Part shown: piece after piece, positions 1,985 to 32,678 of the stretch | How the letters are laid out: each line of letters begins with the position of its first letter | How positions within the stretch are numbered: position 1 is the stretch's first letter | Source: a virus | Taxonomy: Duplodnaviria; Caudoviricetes | Reading direction: 5' to 3' (one strand) | IMG/VR virus record: IMGVR_UViG_3300020043_005745 | Coordinates: 1-33,901 of that record | DNA: 33,901 nt | The notes under the pieces: generated by a model | What the model was told of the DNA's origin: nothing | Seen by the model: only the letters and a program-made list of their open reading frames with translations | The model's database searches: none | Program-made: the position numbers and the translations under genes

Positions 1985-2727
1985 GACGGACTCCCGGCTT
2001 TCTGCCATTCGCTAAATGATGCGAAGCCCATAATCCGATATAGCGGAGCGGACTCGCACGATGATTTGATTTGTGGTTTTGGTTGCATGGTTTGTGTTCC
2101 TTTCGGTTGTGTTCCTTGGTTTCTGCGAAAGCAATTTCTGGCGGCGGCTTGCCAATTCTTAACGGGCGCACGGCCTCCGACCTTCCATCCATTAGCCTCA
2201 TAATGGTCGAAGGCTCCTTGAACATCCTTGCCTACCCATCCAATGCTCTTTGCGTAATCCGACCATTCCGCGAGCGTGGGGCGCACCTGCGCCCTCTCTC
2301 TCTTTATCTGGCCTCTAGCCTCTGTAGCCTCTAGCCTCTGCCCCGTGACAAAGGCGTGACATCCGTTGGACATTTGCGTGACAGAGCCGTGACGCTTGCG
2401 GAACTGCCTATCCCTGTTTGACTTGCGTGTCCGCTCTTCCTTGCTCATTCGGCGTGAAAATATCGTGTCATTGTCCATTGAATACACGCCAGCTTGCGCC
2501 AACTCGATGAGCAACTCGGATGTCGTTTCGAGGCTTTGGCCGAAGATTCGGGCTAGGTGTTCAGCCGTCATGGGCTTATCCCCGGCCAACAAATAGCCGT
2601 GCCTTTTTGATTTTGCCATAAGGCAAATCATATCCACCCAAAGCCCTCTTGCCGCCGGAGTGCAACCTCGCAAGGCTTCATCCGAAAGCCAGTCTGAGGG
2701 ATAGAATTTAAGCCAAGGCAACTTCAT
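1981..2727 (-). CDS. replication initiator protein (DUF1376/YdaU-like N-terminus)
   Basis: N-terminal 'LPWLKFYPSDWLSD...ARGLWVDMICLM', C-terminal 'FDHYEANGWKVG...KNWQAAARN', and internal iteron-like repeats. Confidence 0.8.
   Translation of the reverse strand: MKLPWLKFYPSDWLSDEALRGCTPAARGLWVDMICLMAKSKRHGYLLAGDKPMTAEHLARIFGQSLETTSELLIELAQAGVYSMDNDTIFSRRMSKEERTRKSNRDRQFRKRHGSVTQMSNGCHAFVTGQRLEATEARGQIKRERAQVRPTLAEWSDYAKSIGWVGKDVQGAFDHYEANGWKVGGRAPVKNWQAAARNCFRRNQGTQPKGTQTMQPKPQIKSSCESAPLYRIMGFASFSEWQKAGSPS
2311..2393. repeat. putative replication origin iterons inside the initiator gene
   Basis: CGTGAC at 2344, 2355, 2377 and 2388 plus degenerate TTGGAC at 2366 give an exact 11-bp period. Adjacent GCCTCT repeats lie at 2311-2340. 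Confidence 0.7.
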
Positions 2728-3083
2728 TCTGGAAACCTAATGAAGTTTAAACCACAAATAATTCTAGCCCTTACCAAAAGTGGTAATTTTTCAAATAATT
2801 TTTTGCAATTTTCAAGATTATCAAGAGGGTTCGTCTTGTTCATAATTGGTTTGTGTTTAAAAATATATTGAGATTCCCTCCATCCAAGAAAGGAATTTGC
2901 CTCGGCAATAGATAAGCCAACTAAATCATTTTCCAAGGATATGGCATCAGCACTAAAAAACTTTATTTTTCTTTCTTTTATATGCTGTGCTATTCTTTTT
3001 GATATTGAAATAGCCTTCCCAATATAAATAATTTCACCATCATAATCTTTTAAAAAATAGATACCGGGATAATCTGCTTTCAT
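2724..3083 (-). CDS. GIY-YIG nuclease family protein
   Basis: 'PGIYFLKDYDGEIIYIGKAISISKRIAQH' with a downstream E...N. Visibly AT-rich compared with its neighbours. Confidence 0.85.
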   Translation of the reverse strand: MKADYPGIYFLKDYDGEIIYIGKAISISKRIAQHIKERKIKFFSADAISLENDLVGLSIAEANSFLGWRESQYIFKHKPIMNKTNPLDNLENCKKLFEKLPLLVRARIICGLNFIRFPE

Positions 3084-8565: not shown

Positions 8566-9072
8566 TTAACGACTAGACCAAGGACGCTTCTTGAAAATAC
8601 TTTTCTTTTCCTTTTTCACCTCGGCTTTTTGTGGGCTAATAAGTTCGCGCCAGCCTTTCACATCTGCCGATTCGAGGTGAGGGGTTTCCCAGTCCAAACG
8701 CCGAAGCCCCCCGGTTGCCTTAGCGATCTTGTGGGCGATTTCATAGGATTCCTCGTCATCCCACGCCGCCGTCCATCCGACTTTATTTTCGGCTAGGGGA
8801 ACAAAGTCAATCGCCCTTGCGCCCTCTCCTTGGTCGATATGGAGCGATTGCGGGGGATAGCCCCGCGCATTTGTGACTTTGGGGCCGGGAAGCGACCGCC
8901 CTTTTTTATATAGCTCTTCCTGTTCGTCTTGAGTCCTAGCCGAGCAGTAAATTAAAACATATAGCTTCTTTGCCCAGCAATCTTGGAACCATTTTGTGAC
9001 TGATTTTGCGAAGTTCTTTTCCAGCTTCTTTATATGGCCTTCGCTACGCTCTAAAGCCTGTTTAAGCGTCAT
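8566..9072 (-). CDS. endolysin, M15 family (L-Ala-D-Glu-type) peptidase
   Basis: 'RTQDEQEELY..GR..PGPKVTNA...SLH...AIDF...ETPHLE'. Confidence 0.88.
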   Translation of the reverse strand: MTLKQALERSEGHIKKLEKNFAKSVTKWFQDCWAKKLYVLIYCSARTQDEQEELYKKGRSLPGPKVTNARGYPPQSLHIDQGEGARAIDFVPLAENKVGWTAAWDDEESYEIAHKIAKATGGLRRLDWETPHLESADVKGWRELISPQKAEVKKEKKSIFKKRPWSSR

Positions 9073-9350
9073 TTGTGTTCCGCCCTAGCCCTCCACCTCT
9101 CCCCCTCGGCAATCGCATTGGAAAGCTCCACAAGTGCCTTTGCGTACTGCTCCCGTAGCTTATTATTGTAAATCTTGGTTTCTTTTTCAACCCTCTCCCA
9201 ATCCTCCATTAACCCCAAGATGTCGGAGGATGTCGGGTAAGAGTAGGTGATTTCTTGGGTGGTAGTGGCGCAACCGCTAACGATCAATCCAGAAAGCGTT
9301 ACGCTCAACACCACGAACCCAACCATCAATAGACTTTTTGCGCTTATCAT
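9069..9350 (-). CDS. lipoprotein, putative o-spanin
   Basis: Hydrophobic signal plus lipobox VSGC. Overlaps the upstream TM gene in another frame. The start could be at 9326. Confidence 0.65.
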   Translation of the reverse strand: MISAKSLLMVGFVVLSVTLSGLIVSGCATTTQEITYSYPTSSDILGLMEDWERVEKETKIYNNKLREQYAKALVELSNAIAEGERWRARAEHK

Positions 9351-9465
9351 TCTTTTCTTCTATTTCTTGGTCGGCCTTTTGCAAGCGGGTTTTTGCTCGA
9401 TTCTTAAGCCACCAGACCCACGCCCCAATCAAAGCCCCTGCGATTGCAAGGACTCCCTCGATCAT
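9277..9465 (-). CDS. putative i-spanin-like protein
   Basis: N-terminal TM followed by a charged helix. Located between the holin and the lipoprotein. Confidence 0.55.
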   Translation of the reverse strand: MIEGVLAIAGALIGAWVWWLKNRAKTRLQKADQEIEEKNDKRKKSIDGWVRGVERNAFWIDR

Positions 9466-9632
9466 TTCCGGCTAAACTTGGCGAGGAAATCAACAACCTT
9501 TTGCAAGGTGTTCTCCGGTTCGTCACCGGGAATCAGCTGGGCGATGGCGATAACCGCGCCCAAAAGAGCCGTGATTGCGCCGAGCCAAGCGAACAAGTCC
9601 GTGCTTTGGATAAGATTAATGATGGTTTCCAT
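9462..9632 (-). CDS. putative holin (56 aa, not in ORF track)
   Basis: Hand-translated METIINLIQSTDLFAWLGAITALLGAVIAIAQLIPGDEPENTLQKVVDFLAKFSRK. First gene of the lysis cassette, with an ATGA overlap. Confidence 0.7.
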   Translation of the reverse strand: METIINLIQSTDLFAWLGAITALLGAVIAIAQLIPGDEPENTLQKVVDFLAKFSRK

Positions 9633-9649
9633 ACGATTTTCCTAGTGTC

Positions 9650-9837
9650 AATTAGGCATCTGGGCAGACAACGCCCCGAGGCATTCCAAAGTTGGAGACA
9701 CTACAATTAGTGGATCATGTCTTGCGGGATTTAGCCCGCCCCTCCGTATGATCTCTCGGGCCTTCCCATTTCTGGGCTTGGCTCGCCCTCGCTTCTGGCT
9801 TGGCGATTAGAAGGGTTTTAGTTGTCTTCTCCAATTA
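9650..9837 (-). ncRNA. candidate structured non-coding RNA, unassigned
   Basis: Eight nested helices can be read by eye, including a GAAA tetraloop on the minus strand, in a gap without a convincing ORF. Confidence 0.6.
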
Positions 9838-9848
9838 AAAACATCTTG

Positions 9849-10790
9849 TCACATCGCAAAGACCGTAAGCCAATAATCTCTTCCTTCCTCTGATTGTGTT
9901 TTAATTGGCGGAATGGGAGTGCCAGATATAAAATTAAATTCAATCGGCCCGTTTGGGCGCGGTTCTCCGTATTGGTTTCCTTGGCTTCCAGTTCTTCGAA
10001 ATGCTTTATGTCCTCCCCATGCCTCATAATAAAACAACAATGTGCAGGATTTTGGAGAATCAAAAAGTCCGTTAGAACAAATATTCAGCTTTTCTGCAAT
10101 CAAATCTAGGTCTTCATCGGTTTTTGGATTTCTAAAACAAGTCGCCTCTTCTTCTGTGTTTGGGATATATGGGCTGAAATAATACCATGGGGCGATTCTT
10201 GGAAATTGTGATTCTTCATTTCCGGGCGGAAAGTTTTTTGGGAGTCCTGCCTCCCACATTTCTTGCGCCGGGAATGGCGGGGCGTTGTTTTCATTCCTCT
10301 TTTCCGGGCTATATCGAAAACAATGAATATAGTTTGGAAACTCTATGAAAGAATTATATTCATCTTCTTTGTTTCCAAGATTCCTGCTTTCCCTGCCCCA
10401 TCTCCAAGTGCGATAACATTTAAAAAGGTCTCCCTCTGGGTCTTCTGGAAAGATAATTTTGCTATCCACATTTGGCGGGGGGTTCTCGCCATAATCGTGA
10501 ACGATACATTCTTTTGCGATATAAACCCTTGAACAGAACCACTTGTAATAAAAGGATTCGCTATATCTTTTCTTTCCTCCAGCACCGCCCTCATTCGGCC
10601 AATTCGGGTAGTTTGGGCCGAATCTTTGTGTATCGTCCGGCATCATCGTTGTTGGCGGTTCGCTTCCCTTGGTTACGGTGTTGCCTTCATAAACCTTTTC
10701 CATGTAGGCATAGGGGCCGCACCGAACCCTGCAATCAATGGGGGTTGCGACTGCGGTGTGATCCCAACCCATCCCGACTTGCCAAAGCAT
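9849..10790 (-). CDS. hypothetical protein, possibly tail-associated
   Basis: 313 aa, rich in Pro, Trp, Cys and Tyr. Last gene of the tail module. Confidence 0.6.
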   Translation of the reverse strand: MLWQVGMGWDHTAVATPIDCRVRCGPYAYMEKVYEGNTVTKGSEPPTTMMPDDTQRFGPNYPNWPNEGGAGGKKRYSESFYYKWFCSRVYIAKECIVHDYGENPPPNVDSKIIFPEDPEGDLFKCYRTWRWGRESRNLGNKEDEYNSFIEFPNYIHCFRYSPEKRNENNAPPFPAQEMWEAGLPKNFPPGNEESQFPRIAPWYYFSPYIPNTEEEATCFRNPKTDEDLDLIAEKLNICSNGLFDSPKSCTLLFYYEAWGGHKAFRRTGSQGNQYGEPRPNGPIEFNFISGTPIPPIKTQSEEGRDYWLTVFAM

Positions 10791-17547: not shown

Positions 17548-17577
17548 TTCAAAATCTCCTTTATGTCAAATTTTAAC

Positions 17578-21303: not shown

Positions 21304-21330
21304 ACCCAAGGCTTTTTGTCACCTTGTCAA

Positions 21331-22005
21331 TCAGCCAAGTTCCACGCTATCCCAAAGAAAGATATTGTCATTGTTCCAAGGCTCCATCGTTTGTGGGAAA
21401 TAAACCACTTTCTTCTCTTTCCTAACCCCTGCGGCCAAGGCCATTTGCCCACTATCAATAGACCAGAACTCCGTGGCTCCTCTGATCGCTTTTGCGAGTT
21501 GTGGGATGCTTGCGGCTGTGAATGTGGTAAGGCCGCTGATTTGAACTCCCGGCGGGCAGAGAACAAAGAAGTTTTCGCCCCCTAGTTTTTTTCTAGCCTC
21601 GACAATAATTTGCAGGGGGTCACGCCTGTGCCCTTGGCTTATTCCAAAGGGGGCAACCAAGTTATATTCTTTTGGCAATCCTTCGGCTGGCGATTCGTCC
21701 AATAAATCCAACACAATGTTCTTTTTATCCGCCTTCTCAATTTCTGGGTGACTATAAACAAAGTCCGTCCAAGTCATGTTGCTGTTCCTATAAGCCTCAT
21801 ACTTATCCGGCCACACCTCCAAATTCAAAACATCACCCTGCCTATGCCCAGCCTTTACATAGGAGGTCATTTCAAAAACGCCTTGGTATTGGGCTAGGCA
21901 ATCAAAAAAAACCTCGTGGCCTTGCTCCGATAAATACTTGGCGGCTGGGAGGCATCGAACGATGTCCCCGAGCCTTTGGGAATATTTAATGGTTTTAAGT
22001 GGCAT
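21331..22005 (-). CDS. glycosyltransferase, GT9 (heptosyltransferase)-like GT-B fold
   Basis: 'RLGDIVRCLPAAKYL' and 'LAKAIRGA.EFWSIDSGQMALAAG'. Confidence 0.8.
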   Translation of the reverse strand: MPLKTIKYSQRLGDIVRCLPAAKYLSEQGHEVFFDCLAQYQGVFEMTSYVKAGHRQGDVLNLEVWPDKYEAYRNSNMTWTDFVYSHPEIEKADKKNIVLDLLDESPAEGLPKEYNLVAPFGISQGHRRDPLQIIVEARKKLGGENFFVLCPPGVQISGLTTFTAASIPQLAKAIRGATEFWSIDSGQMALAAGVRKEKKVVYFPQTMEPWNNDNIFLWDSVELG

Positions 22006-22762
22006 CGTCCACCACGCTTCGGTCTTGGATATGGTTAAAAAATCTATTTAAGCGAACTGGCCCGTGGGTCTTTTGTAGTTCTTCCCAAGATTTCAAAAGA
22101 CCAGCGTAACCATAAAAATCTTCCTTAAATGCAACATTGTCTCTTGTGCAGTATGCGTAATGGTTGAATACAAGCCCAAATTCCTCGGTAATCCCACGAG
22201 GGATTCTGCTTGTCTGATGGTTTAGTTGCGGGGGTTCATGGCTAATAAAATGGATGCCCTCACCCCATTTCCACGCTCGATACCATTCATAGGGATAAGA
22301 ACCTAACCCACTTCTACTAACCACAATCTTTTTCCCTATATGGTAATTACAATGAAATTGGGCAACCGTTCCGGCCAGCTTGTCCTTCATTAGCTCATAA
22401 AGGCGAGTCATTTGTTCTGGAGTCCAAAACTCATCAGCATCTTGTTCCATCACAACCCCGCAATCCACGCCCTCCAAAGCCTTGTTCACCATCTCAATCT
22501 TTCCATCGAAAGGCTTATTTTGCCAATAAACAGAGACATTCTTGTGATTTAGATTCTTTAGATATTCATGCGTTCCGTCTATGGAAACATAGTCCTTATG
22601 CCATTTTGCGGGAACTTCCTTGCACCATCTGGTACAGTTCCTTGGGCTAGAAACTCCTTCGACAATGCGCCACCGCCAAGGGATTTGAAGTTTTTGGTAG
22701 GCTTCTAACTTTTTCTCAATATAGGGCTGGCCATTAAGAACGATTGTGAAAATGGTTAGCAT
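21995..22762 (-). CDS. glycosyltransferase, GT2-like
   Basis: 'IFTIVLNGQPYI...SIDGTHEYL...EQDADEFW...HY' with a DxD motif. Confidence 0.8.
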   Translation of the reverse strand: MLTIFTIVLNGQPYIEKKLEAYQKLQIPWRWRIVEGVSSPRNCTRWCKEVPAKWHKDYVSIDGTHEYLKNLNHKNVSVYWQNKPFDGKIEMVNKALEGVDCGVVMEQDADEFWTPEQMTRLYELMKDKLAGTVAQFHCNYHIGKKIVVSRSGLGSYPYEWYRAWKWGEGIHFISHEPPQLNHQTSRIPRGITEEFGLVFNHYAYCTRDNVAFKEDFYGYAGLLKSWEELQKTHGPVRLNRFFNHIQDRSVVDDAT

Positions 22763-23292
22763 TGTTTTACCCAGCATTGTTCCATTGTGATGAATCCAGA
22801 AACGCTTTCATTTACGGCTTGAATAACCCCCGGCCAAGTATGCACATAGTCATGGCCAGCTAGGATTCCGCCTTTTCTGACTTTTGGCAACCAATTTTCA
22901 ATATCTCTTTTTACGGCCTCGTAAGTATGGTCGGCATCTATAAAAACCCCGTCTAGTGAGCCATCTTCAAATAAAGAAACCGCCTCATCCGTTGTCATCC
23001 TATGCGCTTGGTAGTGGCCGTTGAGCGGAGCCATGTTTGCGATAAACTTTTCATATAGCCCATCAGTTAGTCCGGCAGTATGTTCGCCCGATCCAAGCCA
23101 AGTATCCACGATATGAATTTGAATATCTTGGCTTTTGTTCTTTGCCTCAACTACAAGAAAGGCCGAGCTTCTGCCCTTCCAAGCCCCAAGCTCGACAAGC
23201 GTTCCATTGGGGCGGCACTTTGAAACCATGAGCCGATAGACGCCCGGATAGGTGAACCATTGTTCTTCAAAGTTTGAATTTATGTGTTCCAT
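22756..23292 (-). CDS. class I SAM methyltransferase (Methyltransf_24-like)
   Basis: 'VELGAWKGRS...FIDADHTYEAVKRDI..WLPKV..GGILAGHDY'. Confidence 0.9.
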   Translation of the reverse strand: MEHINSNFEEQWFTYPGVYRLMVSKCRPNGTLVELGAWKGRSSAFLVVEAKNKSQDIQIHIVDTWLGSGEHTAGLTDGLYEKFIANMAPLNGHYQAHRMTTDEAVSLFEDGSLDGVFIDADHTYEAVKRDIENWLPKVRKGGILAGHDYVHTWPGVIQAVNESVSGFITMEQCWVKQC

Positions 23293-23861
23293 GTTTTCTC
23301 CGCTATTTCGTTCCACGCCCCGCTTCTTCGGATGGAATAGCCAAGCGAAAGAAGCCTTTTTGTGAGCATGGCGTGATTCTGTCCCTTGGTCGCCAAGCCA
23401 TCAGAGTGTAGAGCTTCAAATTGAATGAAGCCTATTTTGTATTTCTGGAAATCCAAGGCAAGGAGAATATGGGAATCCATACCTTCGGTGTCGATATAAA
23501 GCCTGTCGCATTTTGTAATTTTGTTTTGCCCAAAGAACCTTGGAAGGCTTGTCGCCTTGACCGCAGTCCCCTCGATAATTTTGTGGCCGTGGTAAAGGGT
23601 ATGGTTTGGGATTAGGGACGAATGATGGCTGTCGGGCTCGTTCTTTGGGCTGTAAAGGATTGCGGCTTGGGAGTCATCCGGCACAATGGCAACCTCGTGG
23701 AATTTTGCTTGCGGAATCTCCTTGTAGGTTTCCCTGCATTTTTCAATCGCCTCATGGCTAGGATCAATTAGATGGACTTGGGAAATTGATTCCCTGTTAG
23801 CTAACACAAATTCTAGGCAATCGTCCGCTCCATCATTTGCCCCGATATTTACAACATTCAT
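23280..23861 (-). CDS. FkbM-family methyltransferase
   Basis: 'NIGANDG...LIDP...LYIDTEGMDSHIL...IQFE'. Confidence 0.85.
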   Translation of the reverse strand: MNVVNIGANDGADDCLEFVLANRESISQVHLIDPSHEAIEKCRETYKEIPQAKFHEVAIVPDDSQAAILYSPKNEPDSHHSSLIPNHTLYHGHKIIEGTAVKATSLPRFFGQNKITKCDRLYIDTEGMDSHILLALDFQKYKIGFIQFEALHSDGLATKGQNHAMLTKRLLSLGYSIRRSGAWNEIAEKTWNT

Positions 23862-24466
23862 TTTCTAAAAATGGCCGAGCCATTTCTCCACAAAAGATTT
23901 TGATAAAGGCAGTCAAATCCGTTTGTTTTAAGCCATTGGTAATTGAAAAAATTCTTGATATCATTCACATCGTCCATGGCGATGATTCCGCCTTCTCTCA
24001 GTCTGGGGAACCATTCCGCCATGTCGGATTGGCCGGAAAAAGCACCGCCATCCAAAAGAATGAAATCGGGCTGATCGTCTAATTGGAATGATTCCCATTT
24101 GTATTTGGATGCGCTTGAAAGGTCGATATCCAGCCAGCTTAAAACAAATTCCAAGGAATACATATTAAGATTTGTGCTTACGGTTTGATAGAACTCCCTA
24201 ATTTGGGATTCATTTAGCCATCTTTGCGGATCGCTTGAAAGGCCATGAATTGCAGTCCCGCCGTGTCTCATGGATAAATTCATTCCATGTCTGCCTATGC
24301 GGTCTGGGTGGATTTCAAAACTATAAAGCCTTTTTGTCTTGATGCACTGAGTTGAGCCGTCCCCGGTTCCTCCCCCAATCTCAACCCCACACTCAAGCCC
24401 CGCGCTGTATTTGGCAAGGGCTTGGCCAAATGGGTCGGCAAGCGTGATTTCTTGCATTATTTCCAC
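23858..24466 (-). CDS. class I SAM methyltransferase
   Basis: 'VEIGGGTGDGST...FILLDGGAFSG...IIAMDD'. Confidence 0.8.
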   Translation of the reverse strand: MEIMQEITLADPFGQALAKYSAGLECGVEIGGGTGDGSTQCIKTKRLYSFEIHPDRIGRHGMNLSMRHGGTAIHGLSSDPQRWLNESQIREFYQTVSTNLNMYSLEFVLSWLDIDLSSASKYKWESFQLDDQPDFILLDGGAFSGQSDMAEWFPRLREGGIIAMDDVNDIKNFFNYQWLKTNGFDCLYQNLLWRNGSAIFRK

Positions 24467-26112
24467 CCATTCATTTTTCGCTTCTCATAGATAGCTTTGC
24501 CTTTTTCGTAAAACTCCGGCTTGTTGTGGTTCTTTATTAGATCATCCGGCTTGCCACCTATAAATAAAGGATTTTCGTGTTTGAATACAATATCTTTGGC
24601 CTCAATCACAACTCCTTCGGCATAAGCCCTTTCTGTAAATTCGTTGTCGGAATAGATGCCATCGCTCTCTTGGTACTCTGGGGCAAACATAAACCCGCCC
24701 TGCTGTTCCAGCCTCTTTTGCGTTAAAATGGCCATGCAGAGCAGTTTGTCGGTTCTAAGCCCATCAGATATTGCCAGCACTTTGGCTTCGTTTGTAGCCC
24801 CAATGGCGTTCGAAATTAGGGCATCCCAATGTCTAGGCGGACTCCAATCATCGCTCATTTGAATTAAAATATCGCCCTTGGCCTGTTTTGCCCCATGGTT
24901 CCAAGCGTTCACGATCCCGCCGGGGTTGCATCGGATGGCTTGGTGTGGGGTGTAGTCTTGGGGGTCATCGTGATCCACAACAAAAATCCATTCCACCTCC
25001 AAGGGCTTTTCTGCCATGCAAAGCCACTGCCACCTTCTTTGCCAAGCAATCTGCGGCCTTCCCCTTGTTGCGTGAATGATTGAGATTTTTGGGGATGGTC
25101 TGCCCTTTTTCATCTTTTGAGCCTCGCCCAATTCATTGACCGAAATGCTGGCCGTCTCATACAAATCCATCGCCTGCCATTGATAGATTGCCTCGTTGAG
25201 ATTCCAATAGTGCGCCTTGGGTCTTGGCAGGGTCATGCAGGAACGCATCGCCCCATAACACTTCAACCACTTCCCCTTGCTTGCGTATTCTTGGCCGACC
25301 CAGAAATAAGCCTCTCTGCGATCCGGCTGAAGGGTGATTGCCTCGCCAAGCCATTTAAGCCTTTCAGATTCCGGCCCACATCGCCCGATATTACAAAGCA
25401 CATCATATCTGAGCGTATCCTCTAGGCTTTCAAAAATTAGGGCTTTTTTGCTTGTCTCATAACATTCCTTGTATTTGCCCGAAAGGAATTGTTCCTGGGC
25501 TTTATAGTAAAGGGCGTTTGGGGCTGGCTCGATAACGTCCTCTAGGATTCTAAAGTTGCGCTCTGCCGAGGTCGCCTTGTAACCATGGGGCTTGTGGATG
25601 CGGACAATCTTATCAACCCCAACCAGCTTATTTGGCTCATGGGCGACCAAAGTTTCGTGAACTCGGCTCCTCCATCTACCCCTACCCTTTCTTAAGGCCA
25701 TCTCCCGAAGGGGATTAAGCTGGGCGTTTTCCACCCAATATCTAAACGCAATTAAATCTGCCCCTTGTTTATTGGCTTGGTCAATCGCCCCATCCACAAT
25801 CTCCGGCGCATCCTTCGCCATCTCATCATCAGCATCCACCCAGAAAGACCAATCGCAAGAGCAGGCATCCAAGGCCGTATTCCTTGCCGTTGCAAAATCG
25901 TCTATGTGAGGCCAATCAGTTTTTTGATTATGATAATAAACGACTTTAGCCCCAAGGCTTTTGGCAATCTCCTCGGTTTTGTCGGGTTCTTTGCTTCCCC
26001 TTGCGATACATACAACTGTTTCAGCGGCAAGCGGGGCAAAGGAACGAATACATCTTTCAATATACGCCTCTTCATTTCCGGCGATCAAATAAACAGAGAC
26101 CTTATTTTTCAT
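24457..26112 (-). CDS. GT2-TPR-GT2 double glycosyltransferase
   Basis: N-terminal GT2 (IAGNEEAYI..C; DFATARN; WVDADD; VHE), TPR-like helices (ALYYKAQE; PDRREAY), and a second GT-A domain (ISIIHATRGR; MSDD; YSDNEFT; FKH). Confidence 0.88.
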   Translation of the reverse strand: MKNKVSVYLIAGNEEAYIERCIRSFAPLAAETVVCIARGSKEPDKTEEIAKSLGAKVVYYHNQKTDWPHIDDFATARNTALDACSCDWSFWVDADDEMAKDAPEIVDGAIDQANKQGADLIAFRYWVENAQLNPLREMALRKGRGRWRSRVHETLVAHEPNKLVGVDKIVRIHKPHGYKATSAERNFRILEDVIEPAPNALYYKAQEQFLSGKYKECYETSKKALIFESLEDTLRYDVLCNIGRCGPESERLKWLGEAITLQPDRREAYFWVGQEYASKGKWLKCYGAMRSCMTLPRPKAHYWNLNEAIYQWQAMDLYETASISVNELGEAQKMKKGRPSPKISIIHATRGRPQIAWQRRWQWLCMAEKPLEVEWIFVVDHDDPQDYTPHQAIRCNPGGIVNAWNHGAKQAKGDILIQMSDDWSPPRHWDALISNAIGATNEAKVLAISDGLRTDKLLCMAILTQKRLEQQGGFMFAPEYQESDGIYSDNEFTERAYAEGVVIEAKDIVFKHENPLFIGGKPDDLIKNHNKPEFYEKGKAIYEKRKMNGWK

Positions 26113-27195: not shown

Positions 27196-27219
27196 GGTGA
27201 TTTTCTCCTTATGTCAATT

Positions 27220-29751: not shown

Positions 29752-29767
29752 AAGTTTTTTCTATATG

Positions 29768-32422
29768 TCAAAGAAGGTCGCCATCAGCCTTGCGGTAGGA
29801 TTCTTTGACCTCTCCCCCGCCAGCCATCTTGAGAAACTTGTTCACCCTAGCCATAGCCCAAGCGTTTCGGCTATTAGGTTTTCCGCCCGTGATGGTCGGC
29901 CTAAAGCTGGTTGAGAAAGCCCCTGCGCCCCTTCTAAATACCTTTTTCAATGTGCCAAGGCTAGGAGCGTTCTTTTGAGGGTGATCCTTTTTGAACTCGG
30001 CAATCTTGTCTTTTAATGCCTGTTCGTTGGCTTCTGAAATCTCAATATCCCCAGCCTTTGACCTAGTGGCCGCCGTGCCTTCGGGGTTCTCCTTGGAGCC
30101 TTTAATTCTTTCCTTGGGCGGGGCAGGGGTTTGTGCCGCTGACTTTGGGCCGGGGCGAGCGAGTTCGGAAAACTCCTCATCCCTTGAGTTCATTTGTCGA
30201 ACCACTTTTCTTGCCCACGCATAACCAGCATCGCCACCCCAGCCATTCCACGCTTGCCAGCCCTTCCCTTGCTCATCCCAAGTTGCGCCCTTTTTATCGA
30301 CTTCGTGGCGATCAAAAAAGGCTTTCATTCTGCGGACGGTATCGGGGGAGAGCTTTACGCCATTCATCAAATCCCTTGCCCTTGCGATGCCTACCGCCGT
30401 CATGCCCTTTTGGCTTGCGGGTTTTTTCTCCCTTACATCCAAAGCCCTCTTTGCGGCTTCTCTTGCTCCTTCTGGGGGAGTGAAATCAATCCCATCGTAC
30501 TTGCCCAACTCAATCCCGCCCATCATCCCGGCGATGAGCATTTTGAAATCTTCTTGAGTTAGCTTTTCAAAAACCTCTTTTTTTTTATCTTCTAGGCCAG
30601 TTGGCTCCGTAGGATTTGGCTTGGGTTCCGTAGTCTGTCCGCCGCCCGATTCCTCGCCACCTTCTCCATCTTGGGCTTGCGCTCGCTCCTCTTTTGTCGT
30701 GGGAACAATCTTTCCTTCTTGCACCCCGCCAATAATCGAAATGGCCTGTTCCCTTGAAATGGTTGGGAATGCCGCCGTTATGACCGAAACCGCCCCCTCC
30801 TTGGAAAGCGCACCAGCGGCCACGGCATTGATAACATTGATAAGGCTTGCGACCTGCGCTCCGTTGAGAGAGATATCGGAAACATTCTGATCGGGCGCGA
30901 TTGCTTGACCTTCCTCTGTGACTTGGCCTTCCTCGCCGTCTTGAGGTGCTGTTTTTTGTGTTGCAATATTGCCAAGGTTGAGAGAAATGTCGGAGATTGT
31001 TTCTGGCGCAACTTCATACTCGCCAGCCAAATCCTTAATCAGCTTGGCCTCGATTGCCCTCTGCCTCATCGCGCTTTCAAAGTCTTGCCCACGCTCGGCG
31101 TAAATATCTGCGGCGGTGCGAAGCCCGGTCTTAAACTCGGAGATTGCAGAGGCAGATTCCCGCCCTAAATCAATCGAAACATTAGCCCCGAAATTGAAGA
31201 TGCCTTTGGTCGTTCTTGTCCCCTCTATTCCGCTGATGAGGCCGCGAGCAACCGCATCGGCCAAAACAATGTTCTTAATAGGCCGAAGCACCTTATCATT
31301 CAAAAGATTCTGGTAGCGGCGGAAAGTGCGCCCCGCCTGTTGCATTTCTAGGCGAGCAGTCGGGCCGGACATCTGCGAAGGATCGACCGCAAAGGAATAT
31401 GGGATGCCAAGGCCAAGGCAGATATTACGAAGCAGAATCTTGTGGAACTCTGCAAAGGCTCCGCTGGGTCGGCTTGGGCCATTGGGGAAAATAATATCTT
31501 CTCCCGGCTCCAAATAGGAAATCTTGCCCGATTCGATTGTCTCTAGTTTGATTGCGTTCCCGCTTAAATCCTCATCATTGGAAAGAGTGGATAGGTCGGC
31601 GGCGTTGTTATTGTTTCGCTTAACGATTCCAGATTGCGAGCTTGCAACTTTCGCCGCCATCTTTTCATAATTGATGATGTCGTAAATGTCGGTTGCGTCA
31701 TTGATTGCAGTATGGAAAGCGGAAACCCCGCGATACTGGTCAATCCGTAGCGGGTCAAAAAGATGAAATGCTTGGCTTGAGGGAATCGTTAGTTGGTAGG
31801 TATAGAAGTCCCCGATACTCCGATTGTAAATATCGTAAGCCGTGGGTGCGCCAGTTGTGCGGTCAATATGGATTCCGCCGATTAGCTCTAGGCTGGTATA
31901 AACTTTGAAAGGATCGCCTAGTCTGTCGGCCTCGATGCCTTGAATCTTTAGGTTGCCATCGCCATCTCGAACTAGGACGAAAAGAAAATCGCCATCCCGC
32001 AACATGGACATAACCGCCACTTGCATGAGCGTTGATCCTGTGTGCCTTGTGGAGATGTCGCACTTGTCCCACCATTCCGCCCAATACGCCTCGACATCGG
32101 TATTGATTTGGGGATTCTGGGTTCGGGCTTGGTAGCTGATTGATCCTGCGACATGGCCAGCAAACTTGAGAAGAAGCGAGCGAACTAGGCCGACATTCTC
32201 GGCCAAGTCCCGCGCCCTTTTCATTAGCTCTACCCGATCATAATTCGAGCGATAGTCTTCCGCCCCGGATAGTGCGCTCGGCCCCTTGCGTTCCCTTGTG
32301 TATTTGACCGCATCATATTCAAACTTGGTCAGCTTTTGACGGGCAATCAGCCGATCAACTGCGCCTTGCGGATTGATAAAGGCGACTGCCTTATCAATCA
32401 GATTCATCTTGGCTTTTTTCAC
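29768..32422 (-). CDS. portal protein, lambda family, with long C-terminal extension
   Basis: 'RARDLAEN', 'RDGDFL', 'HLFDPLRIDQYRGVS' and 'LEPGE' portal core (~480 aa) plus about 400 extra aa. Confidence 0.92.
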   Translation of the reverse strand: MKKAKMNLIDKAVAFINPQGAVDRLIARQKLTKFEYDAVKYTRERKGPSALSGAEDYRSNYDRVELMKRARDLAENVGLVRSLLLKFAGHVAGSISYQARTQNPQINTDVEAYWAEWWDKCDISTRHTGSTLMQVAVMSMLRDGDFLFVLVRDGDGNLKIQGIEADRLGDPFKVYTSLELIGGIHIDRTTGAPTAYDIYNRSIGDFYTYQLTIPSSQAFHLFDPLRIDQYRGVSAFHTAINDATDIYDIINYEKMAAKVASSQSGIVKRNNNNAADLSTLSNDEDLSGNAIKLETIESGKISYLEPGEDIIFPNGPSRPSGAFAEFHKILLRNICLGLGIPYSFAVDPSQMSGPTARLEMQQAGRTFRRYQNLLNDKVLRPIKNIVLADAVARGLISGIEGTRTTKGIFNFGANVSIDLGRESASAISEFKTGLRTAADIYAERGQDFESAMRQRAIEAKLIKDLAGEYEVAPETISDISLNLGNIATQKTAPQDGEEGQVTEEGQAIAPDQNVSDISLNGAQVASLINVINAVAAGALSKEGAVSVITAAFPTISREQAISIIGGVQEGKIVPTTKEERAQAQDGEGGEESGGGQTTEPKPNPTEPTGLEDKKKEVFEKLTQEDFKMLIAGMMGGIELGKYDGIDFTPPEGAREAAKRALDVREKKPASQKGMTAVGIARARDLMNGVKLSPDTVRRMKAFFDRHEVDKKGATWDEQGKGWQAWNGWGGDAGYAWARKVVRQMNSRDEEFSELARPGPKSAAQTPAPPKERIKGSKENPEGTAATRSKAGDIEISEANEQALKDKIAEFKKDHPQKNAPSLGTLKKVFRRGAGAFSTSFRPTITGGKPNSRNAWAMARVNKFLKMAGGGEVKESYRKADGDLL

Positions 32423-32655: not shown

Positions 32656-32678
32656 AAAATCACCTTTTGTGTCAAAGA

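Follow-up and report, generated by a model that had tools for sequence, protein, structure and literature searches.

A predicted circularly permuted group I ribozyme ahead of the lysis genes of a phage genome

What kind of RNA is encoded between the tail-region and lysis genes of a 33.9-kb viral record (33,901 nt, below called the window) whose lambda-like terminase, portal and capsid genes all lie on the minus strand? The preliminary description of this region proposed a structured non-coding RNA with a novel fold, located in the largest gap of the genome. The gap is indeed the largest: among the ORFs taken as genes, it spans 216 nt (9633-9848), compared to 195 nt for the next largest intergenic space. 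The fold turned out to be a known one, that of group I introns; what is new is its topology. We consider that the element is likely, with a probability of about 0.5, a circularly permuted group I ribozyme, opened in L1, that would cut late mRNA and release a 33-nt circle.

The locus and the copies of the element

The following features surround the element.

8566-9072: endolysin (PHROG, E 1e-11)
9462-9632, minus strand: holin-like ORF, 56 aa, hydrophobic, without a family match and named from its position
9646-9651, minus strand: TTGACA motif before the start of the holin-like gene, a part of the host locus outside the insert
9847-9852, minus strand: GTGACA, a variant of TTGACA that overlaps the upstream stop codon and is kept in all three copies
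9849-10790, minus strand: upstream ORF, 313 aa, complete and uninterrupted, located before the element in all three full loci
17564-17569, 21325-21330, 27212-27217, 29766-29771 and 32670-32675, minus strand: TTGACA copies that, like 9646-9651, stand before starts

We infer a holin-like role for the 56-aa ORF from its position ahead of two small ORFs and the endolysin. In 36 out of 36 related loci, TTGACA precedes the holin-like ATG by 12-15 nt, and six of its ten minus-strand copies in the window are located 13-16 nt ahead of late-gene starts. This distance is too short for a σ70 -35 box; the phage group may use the motif as a signal for late promoters or for translation. Neither a σ70 promoter nor an intrinsic terminator was identified on the minus strand between positions 9300 and 10200. 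The GTGACA motif noticed earlier at 9852-9847 is present, and its end is 12 nt away from the guide strand described below. As this is about the same spacing as that from TTGACA to start codons, the RNA may have a start of its own, with GTGACA as a possible promoter.

Elsewhere in the window, three GTGACA copies are found within 40 nt on the plus strand (2345-2383), inside a replisome-organiser-like gene (1981-2727), and are possibly replication-origin iterons. A free-standing GIY-YIG nuclease ORF (2724-3083; Pfam, E 1e-7) is located 6.6 kb from the element, with no demonstrated link to it. The region between the head and tail genes (21995-26112) contains two glycosyltransferases and three methyltransferases (FkbM, Methyltransf_24) that are possibly involved in virion or surface glycan modification.

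Full copies of the element were found in three places: in the window, in L001 (92% identical) and in L156, each following a gene of the same 313-aa family; sequencing run X3 contributed a variant contig that spans the element. These syntenic homologues uphold the view that the gap encodes a conserved structured non-coding RNA, and a short ORF does not explain the conservation, since a 2-nt deletion in both L001 and L156 disrupts the 39-codon minus-strand frame (9715-9834). A loose contig end from run X1 contains a more distant copy with another P7 variant and a different P9, after which come G and a downstream segment that begins in nearly the same way. The copies differ at 7-9 of 104 core nucleotides, mostly in the P5, P6a and P8 arms, compared to 5-7 of 13 and 9-17 of 29 positions in the flanking spacers, and the length of P6a varies among homologues.

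Wider searches retrieved little else. BLASTN with the element and tblastn with two family proteins against 50,697 GenBank phages produced a single 25-nt chance match. Scans with exact motifs gave chance matches in 37 out of 38 cases for one motif and in one out of two for another, and nine out of ten pattern matches in metagenomes were unrelated. A family-specific pattern matched L001 alone among viral contigs; its seven matches in genomes included no homologue, and one of them was an ordinary intron. Apart from L029, the contig of L001, a covariance model built from the three copies (R2) found no additional copy in 70 loci; the weak matches of this model were to flanks or partial cores.

Of 36 related viral loci, 35 lack the element in front of the holin-like gene, the exception being L029, and the element is thus dispensable. 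In most element-free loci the stop codon of the upstream ORF is 15-33 nt away from the start codon; we regard the element as an optional insert between the stop codon and TTGACA. In two other loci (L013:1860-2500 and L023:1840-2500), an open frame of ca. 200 codons fills the slot before the holin-like gene; it is an inverted gene, running against the single direction of the surrounding region.

The 313-aa ORF occupies a variable slot after a large tail-region gene. Its product matched no Pfam or PHROG family, all its Atlas matches were below 0.9, Foldseek returned no match, and its AlphaFold model is poor (pLDDT 45). The closer members of the family share an invariant RDYWLTVF motif at the C-terminus. 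Out of 38 stored family proteins, 36 stop two residues past the position equivalent to TVF, while the other two are 129-aa fragments, and the shared stop extends to relatives as remote as E 1e-4 to 1e-7. The gene and the ribozyme may travel as one cassette.

A group I core in the gap

The helices listed in the preliminary description are all complementary, and the minus-strand polarity proposed there is correct. The region was also called densely base-paired; the helices exist, but its folding energy is only modestly better than that of shuffled sequences (z = -1.79 on the minus strand, a value reached by 8 of 200 shuffles, and z = -1.83 on the plus strand, reached by 10 of 200). As had been anticipated, ARAGORN detected no tRNA or tmRNA, and no Rfam family reached its gathering score in the whole window; at E<=10, the region 9550-9950 matched only a snoRNA, by chance (E 0.53).

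The stretch 9712-9815 on the minus strand is, we are practically certain from its sequence, a compact group I catalytic core with P3-P8 and the guanosine-binding site. We take it to resemble the small IC3-like type, a subgroup label that comes from the Azoarcus and tRNA introns. Its parts are as follows.

9810-9815, minus strand: P3 5' strand, forming a pseudoknot with 9745-9740 (6 bp, including one U.G)
9783-9806, minus strand: P4 (5 bp), J4/5 and P5 (2 bp)
9760-9782, minus strand: P6 and P6a with a GAAA loop
9749-9755, minus strand: P7 5' strand with bulged A9754 and the guanosine-binding pair G9753-C9713
9724-9745, minus strand: P3 3' strand (9745-9740) and P8 (9739-9724)
9712-9723, minus strand: J8/7 (9723-9718) and P7 3' strand (9717-9712)
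9700-9711, minus strand: P9, a short hairpin in which L001 has a double change from A-U to C-G

Most of the helices described earlier fit this scheme: 9802-9806/9783-9787 is P4, the GCC/GGC arm is P6/P6a, 9748-9753/9713-9718 is P7, 9735-9739/9724-9728 is P8, 9699-9712 is P9, the closing helix is P1 (see below), and the pseudoknot that had been considered possible between CCCTTC and GAGGGG is P3. "Ribozyme" was among the functions suggested for the element, and the group I core supports this guess; the accompanying reading that it is unrelated to known ribozymes does not hold, as the helices map to group I.

The P7 and J8/7 motifs were recognised first and then tested by pattern and by model. 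Two patterns taken from the element, one describing P7 and J8/7 and the other P4 and P6, were run on viral contigs. Each recovered ordinary group I introns, the second an estimated 1000 or so stretches. RF00028 matches seven of nine such comparison loci at E<=0.01, six of them at the core used. We built a covariance model, R1, from 37 ordinary cores, leaving out the element and P3; in the underlying alignment, double changes are present in 22 of 32 pairs, a number reached by none of 500 shuffles. In the window, R1 matches 9710-9819 on the minus strand with 49.4 bits (rough E 3e-10; the runner-up has 10.4 bits), a score that is partly circular, as the training loci were picked by element-derived motifs, and only roughly calibrated. 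No non-standard pair is marked in the alignment to this match. L156 and L001 score 41.3 and 37.9 bits, respectively, and in five related phage records the L001 record alone was matched. A sequence-only HMM of 86 cores assigns the element an E value of only 0.02. The element falls below the gathering threshold of RF00028; Rfam is likewise blank at three of nine ordinary cores. Several cores without an Rfam match were scored by R1, and in four loci two or three group I cores lie within ca. 1 kb (L110:888-1639, L089:1104-1608, L109:1199-1658 and L147:1199-2066).

P3 provides an independent check, since it was part of neither the patterns nor R1: all six of its pairs are in register, and its U.G is what ordinary cores most often have at the corresponding position (24/37). 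The guanosine-site pair is G-C in all 37 ordinary cores, as in the element, and the P7 variant of the element is present in five of them. All P3, P7 and guanosine-site pairs are standard in the three copies; one terminal P8 pair is broken in L001. P4, P6 and P6a are present, J8/7 is a plain 6-nt linker and P8 a closed 16-nt hairpin. The element deviates from the majority in J3/4 (3 nt), J6/7 (4 nt), P4 (5 bp), P5 (2 bp) and J5/4, which reads GAG instead of the AA found in 37 of 37 ordinary cores; a short J3/4 is also present in L109 and L142.

Within the core, the P4'/P5 arm (9792-9804) and the P6/P6a arm (9769-9782) have a near-identical word of 13-14 nt in common, and in L156 both copies of the word carry GAAA after a GCC run. 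The unusual P5 arm may be derived from the P6 arm by duplication. The duplication of GCCAAGCC(C)AGAA reported earlier is also present.

Two further helices of the preliminary description, 9755-9760/9675-9680 and 9685-9696, pair as described but exclude the active core or P10, and they are best read as parts of a competing fold. A catalytically silent element, either a relic or a structural RNA of group I origin locked in the multi-junction fold with 9760-9755/9680-9675 blocking the guanosine site, has to be considered in this respect. The multi-junction fold is calculated at -51.6 kcal/mol, compared to -40.5 to -44.5 kcal/mol for nested subsets of the group I fold, each of which omits one or two crossing helices. 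A pair of the blocking helix is G-C in the window, G.U in L001 and, through a double change, A-U on one X3 contig, and the predicted splice site, as shown below, lacks a wobble pair. L156, however, has a C.C mismatch in the blocking helix, each P7, guanosine-site and P3 pair is intact in all three copies, and the core has changed far less than the spacers around it. We therefore regard a silent element as unlikely.

A guide strand with both partners behind the core

The pairing that is missing from the earlier fold, and that reveals the permuted order, is a P10-type helix between 9834-9828 and 9698-9692. It involves the following features.

9828-9835, minus strand: guide 5' half, P10', pairing with 9698-9691
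9821-9827, minus strand: guide 3' half, P1', pairing with 9666-9672
9816-9820, minus strand: A-rich linker from the guide to P3, with no P2
9699, minus strand: likely terminal G (omega-G), a G directly before P10'' in all three copies and in the distant copy from X1
9666-9698, minus strand: internal 33-nt "exon" and predicted circle, with P10'' (9698-9691), a hairpin (9696-9685), a variable middle and P1'' (9672-9666)
9662-9665, minus strand: conserved GCCC, a presumed short remnant of the 5' part of the intron, after the predicted 5' splice site 9666/9665

The 14-nt guide (9834-9821) is a perfect complement of two segments downstream of the core, 9698-9692 and 9672-9666. P10 and P1 adjoin on the guide strand and cross one another, so that the "5' exon" is placed behind the "3' exon". 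They comprise 7+7 Watson-Crick pairs in the window, 8+7 in L001 and 9+8 in L156, and the enclosed segment is 33 nt long in each case. A split complement of at least 7+7 is found in none of 83 ordinary cores (86 minus three without an anchor or flank; best 6+6) and in none of 24 more (best 5+5). None of 2000 mononucleotide shuffles reached 7+7, while the P1'' heptamer alone occurred in 434 of 100,000.

All four substitutions that distinguish the three copies within the guide and the segments 9699-9685 and 9672-9662 create or preserve a pair. A9822-U9671 of P1 becomes G-C in L156 by a double change, and at 9835/9691 the window has A.C, L001 has A-U and L156 has G-C. Conversely, the middle of the 33 nt differs at three and six of 12 positions, and conservation stops at GCCC (9662-9665). 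The covariation that had been suggested as a check is present in the form of three double changes among the three copies but is not significant alone, as 36 of 500 shuffles equalled it. The reversed order rests on match length, register and the direction of a few changes. Taking these together, we believe that the downstream P1 and P10 are very probably real. The 3' splice site is likely 9699/9698.

The predicted 5' splice-site pair is U9666-A9827 in all three copies; neither U.G nor C.A is present, and this U-A in place of U.G is the main weakness of the model. Natural splice sites with C-G exist, and a cut one base earlier, at C9667-G9826, is possible and would give a 32-nt circle. Cleavage at the C9663.A9830 wobble was considered and rejected, as it is out of register with P10. 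According to PMC11417360, u-G is the pair that is standard at the 5' splice site, and its replacement usually makes the reaction less efficient.

Could the element be an ordinary cis-splicing intron instead? The guide would then pair with 9863-9858, the 5' splice site would lie two codons before the upstream stop, and joining to 9698 (or 9664) would give the 313-aa protein a new C-terminus. This upstream P1 has 6 bp with a canonical U.G (9858/9829) in all three copies, the P10 covariation is compatible with it, and the frame past 9698 is open for 16-17 codons in each copy. The open frame is uninformative, however, as the 33 nt are open in all three frames. The upstream P1 (-6.8 to -7.1 kcal/mol) is ca. 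4 kcal/mol weaker than the downstream one (-10.6 to -13.8 kcal/mol), which also covaries, and it lies within invariant codons, whose conservation requires no RNA cause. Moreover, even without splicing the ORF has the same end as 36 of 38 family proteins. It thus follows from this shared native C-terminus that the "intron start" is the native end of the gene and that neither candidate 3' exon restores the ORF; splicing to 9664 would add unrelated tails of 1, 4 and 43 residues. An ordinary intron is therefore quite improbable.

A guide of this length (14-17 nt), together with a possible own promoter ending 12 nt upstream, would also suit a ribozyme that targets RNA of the host or of a rival phage in trans and is inhibited by its own 33-nt segment. 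Arguing against this, no second target was found in the phage, where the best other matches have three mismatches (six such matches versus 3.4 expected), and the guide changes together with its partners in cis. We consider action in trans to be very far from probable.

The predicted reaction and its known relatives

The core with its guanosine-binding site, the 14-nt guide and the two downstream partners in reversed order are established by sequence and comparison. From these parts a permuted group I reaction can be proposed. First, 9672-9666 would pair with the guide as P1, and free guanosine or GTP would attack at 9666/9665, so that the lysis-side RNA would acquire an extra G as its 5' end, 33 nt upstream of the holin-like start. 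P10 would then form, and the 3'-OH of U9666 would attack after G9699, joining U9666 to U9698 and closing 9698-9666 into a 33-nt circle. The third product would be upstream RNA ending in the ribozyme. Finally, the circle hairpin 9696-9685, which repeats a portion of the guide sequence and is preserved in all three copies, would displace the guide; this hairpin could hold back P10 or free the circle. Overall, the reaction would separate the mRNA of the lysis genes from read-through out of the tail genes. If the holin-like gene has a promoter of its own at 9651-9646, the cut would halt read-through rather than make lysis mRNA. The competing multi-junction fold may serve as an off state, in which helix 9760-9755/9680-9675 would block the guanosine site. 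In our estimate, the chances that the full two-step reaction occurs are evenly balanced.

The predicted splice joint was not seen in contigs of four sequencing runs. Coverage of the element is partial or absent in runs X18 and X19, which says nothing about its expression; a single contig from RNA run X18 crosses both predicted sites unspliced and may be derived from DNA.

In group I introns, the wobble pair is less important for ligation, and there is a hydrolysis pathway that yields full-length circles. A permuted ribozyme might make one cut only, either hydrolysing after G9699 or carrying out the first step alone, and so process mRNA without forming a circle; in a variant, hydrolysis after G9699 would be followed by attack of that G at 9666/9665, so that the 33 nt are lost as a linear piece and the mRNA is rejoined. 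The terminal G directly follows P9, with no P9.0, and without the wobble the guanosine-dependent first step should be slower, as would be expected from the lowered efficiency described in PMC11417360. The lariat-capping ribozyme, as presented in PMC8637638, is a precedent, being a group I descendant with one-step mRNA end formation. A single cut, however, needs one helix, whereas the perfect contiguous P10 and P1 on one guide and the fixed 33-nt spacing suit ligation. We thus hold single cleavage to be rather unlikely, and the circle-forming ribozyme remains our preferred reading.

Compared to the group I introns of phages and bacteria (RF00028), the element has the same P3-P7 pseudoknot, P4 and P6 helices, P8, J8/7, guanosine pair, terminal G and P1/P10 guide, and G9699 is followed by 7-9 bp of P10 pairing in all three copies, as expected of a terminal G and its 3' exon. 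It differs in that both splice-site partners are downstream, in reversed order, and that no upstream 5' splice site interrupts a gene that splicing would restore. It also lacks P2 and an adjacent homing endonuclease, has U-A for U.G (U.G being present in the weaker upstream rival only) and is missed by RF00028. We predict from the sequence that it acts like a group I ribozyme while standing outside the intron family by gene interruption, splice-site order and wobble.

In lariat-capping GIR1 (RF01807), the P1-like partner lies between P8 and P7, while in the element it is downstream of the terminal G. Both appear to be small group I descendants that process the 5' end of a downstream mRNA rather than splice, as PMC8637638 describes for GIR1. 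No RF01807 match was found, the element is without P15 and the P2/P2.1 topology, and it comes from a phage and not from a protist twin-ribozyme intron.

The circularly permuted (CP) group II ribozymes (Roth et al. 2021, PMC8637638) are, by analogy, a conceptual twin. They have reversed splice sites around a short linker, an uncharacterised neighbouring ORF and an undefined function, and their predicted circles of 15-86 nt bracket the 33 nt of the element. They use a group II fold and branching chemistry, whereas a group I core and guanosine chemistry are predicted here; group II domains in the order D5-D6-D1-D4 are not present, and no group II Rfam match was found in the window. The ND5-717 intron found in corallimorpharian mitochondria (Chi et al. 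2019, PMC6545197) is a back-splicing intron of group I. It is opened in P8, measures 18-19 kb, interrupts a real gene and produces a 2.1-kb circle joining ND5 exons, while the element has a contiguous core with P8 closed, is opened in L1, is ca. 170 nt long, and lies between phage genes, with its enclosed 33 nt belonging to neither of them. The order of parts is the same in an engineered Tetrahymena ribozyme (Cui et al. 2023, PMC10415121), in which the guide (13 nt versus 14 here) and the core come first and the target lies downstream, forming P1 with its 3' end and P10 with its 5' end. That construct circularises its target; it is man-made, has U at a wobble-paired 5' splice site and carries an added antisense arm.

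Guide partners behind the core in place of an upstream exon are an arrangement known so far mainly from engineered constructs. The natural circular permutations listed in 2023 in PMC10085705 are limited to hammerhead, twister, 5S rRNA and group II, and the word "permuted" does not occur in the available part of PMC12350094. The only natural group I intron with back-splicing that we found in print is ND5-717, and a compact natural L1-permuted group I ribozyme was not found in the accessible open-licence PMC and bioRxiv literature; subscription papers and supplements could hold one.

A bolder, tentative view is that in lake phages group I introns may have become stand-alone, L1-permuted ribozymes for mRNA processing and would thus parallel the CP group II RNAs. 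Here such a ribozyme would combine an all-Watson-Crick splice-site helix with a 33-nt circle, put a fresh G(TP) 5' end on lysis mRNA and be controlled by a competing fold. If true, an intergenic group I ribozyme of ca. 170 nt with reversed splice sites would provide a very small natural scaffold for RNA circularisation, would test natural exceptions to the U.G wobble rule and would show that phage introns have been repurposed as mRNA cutters.
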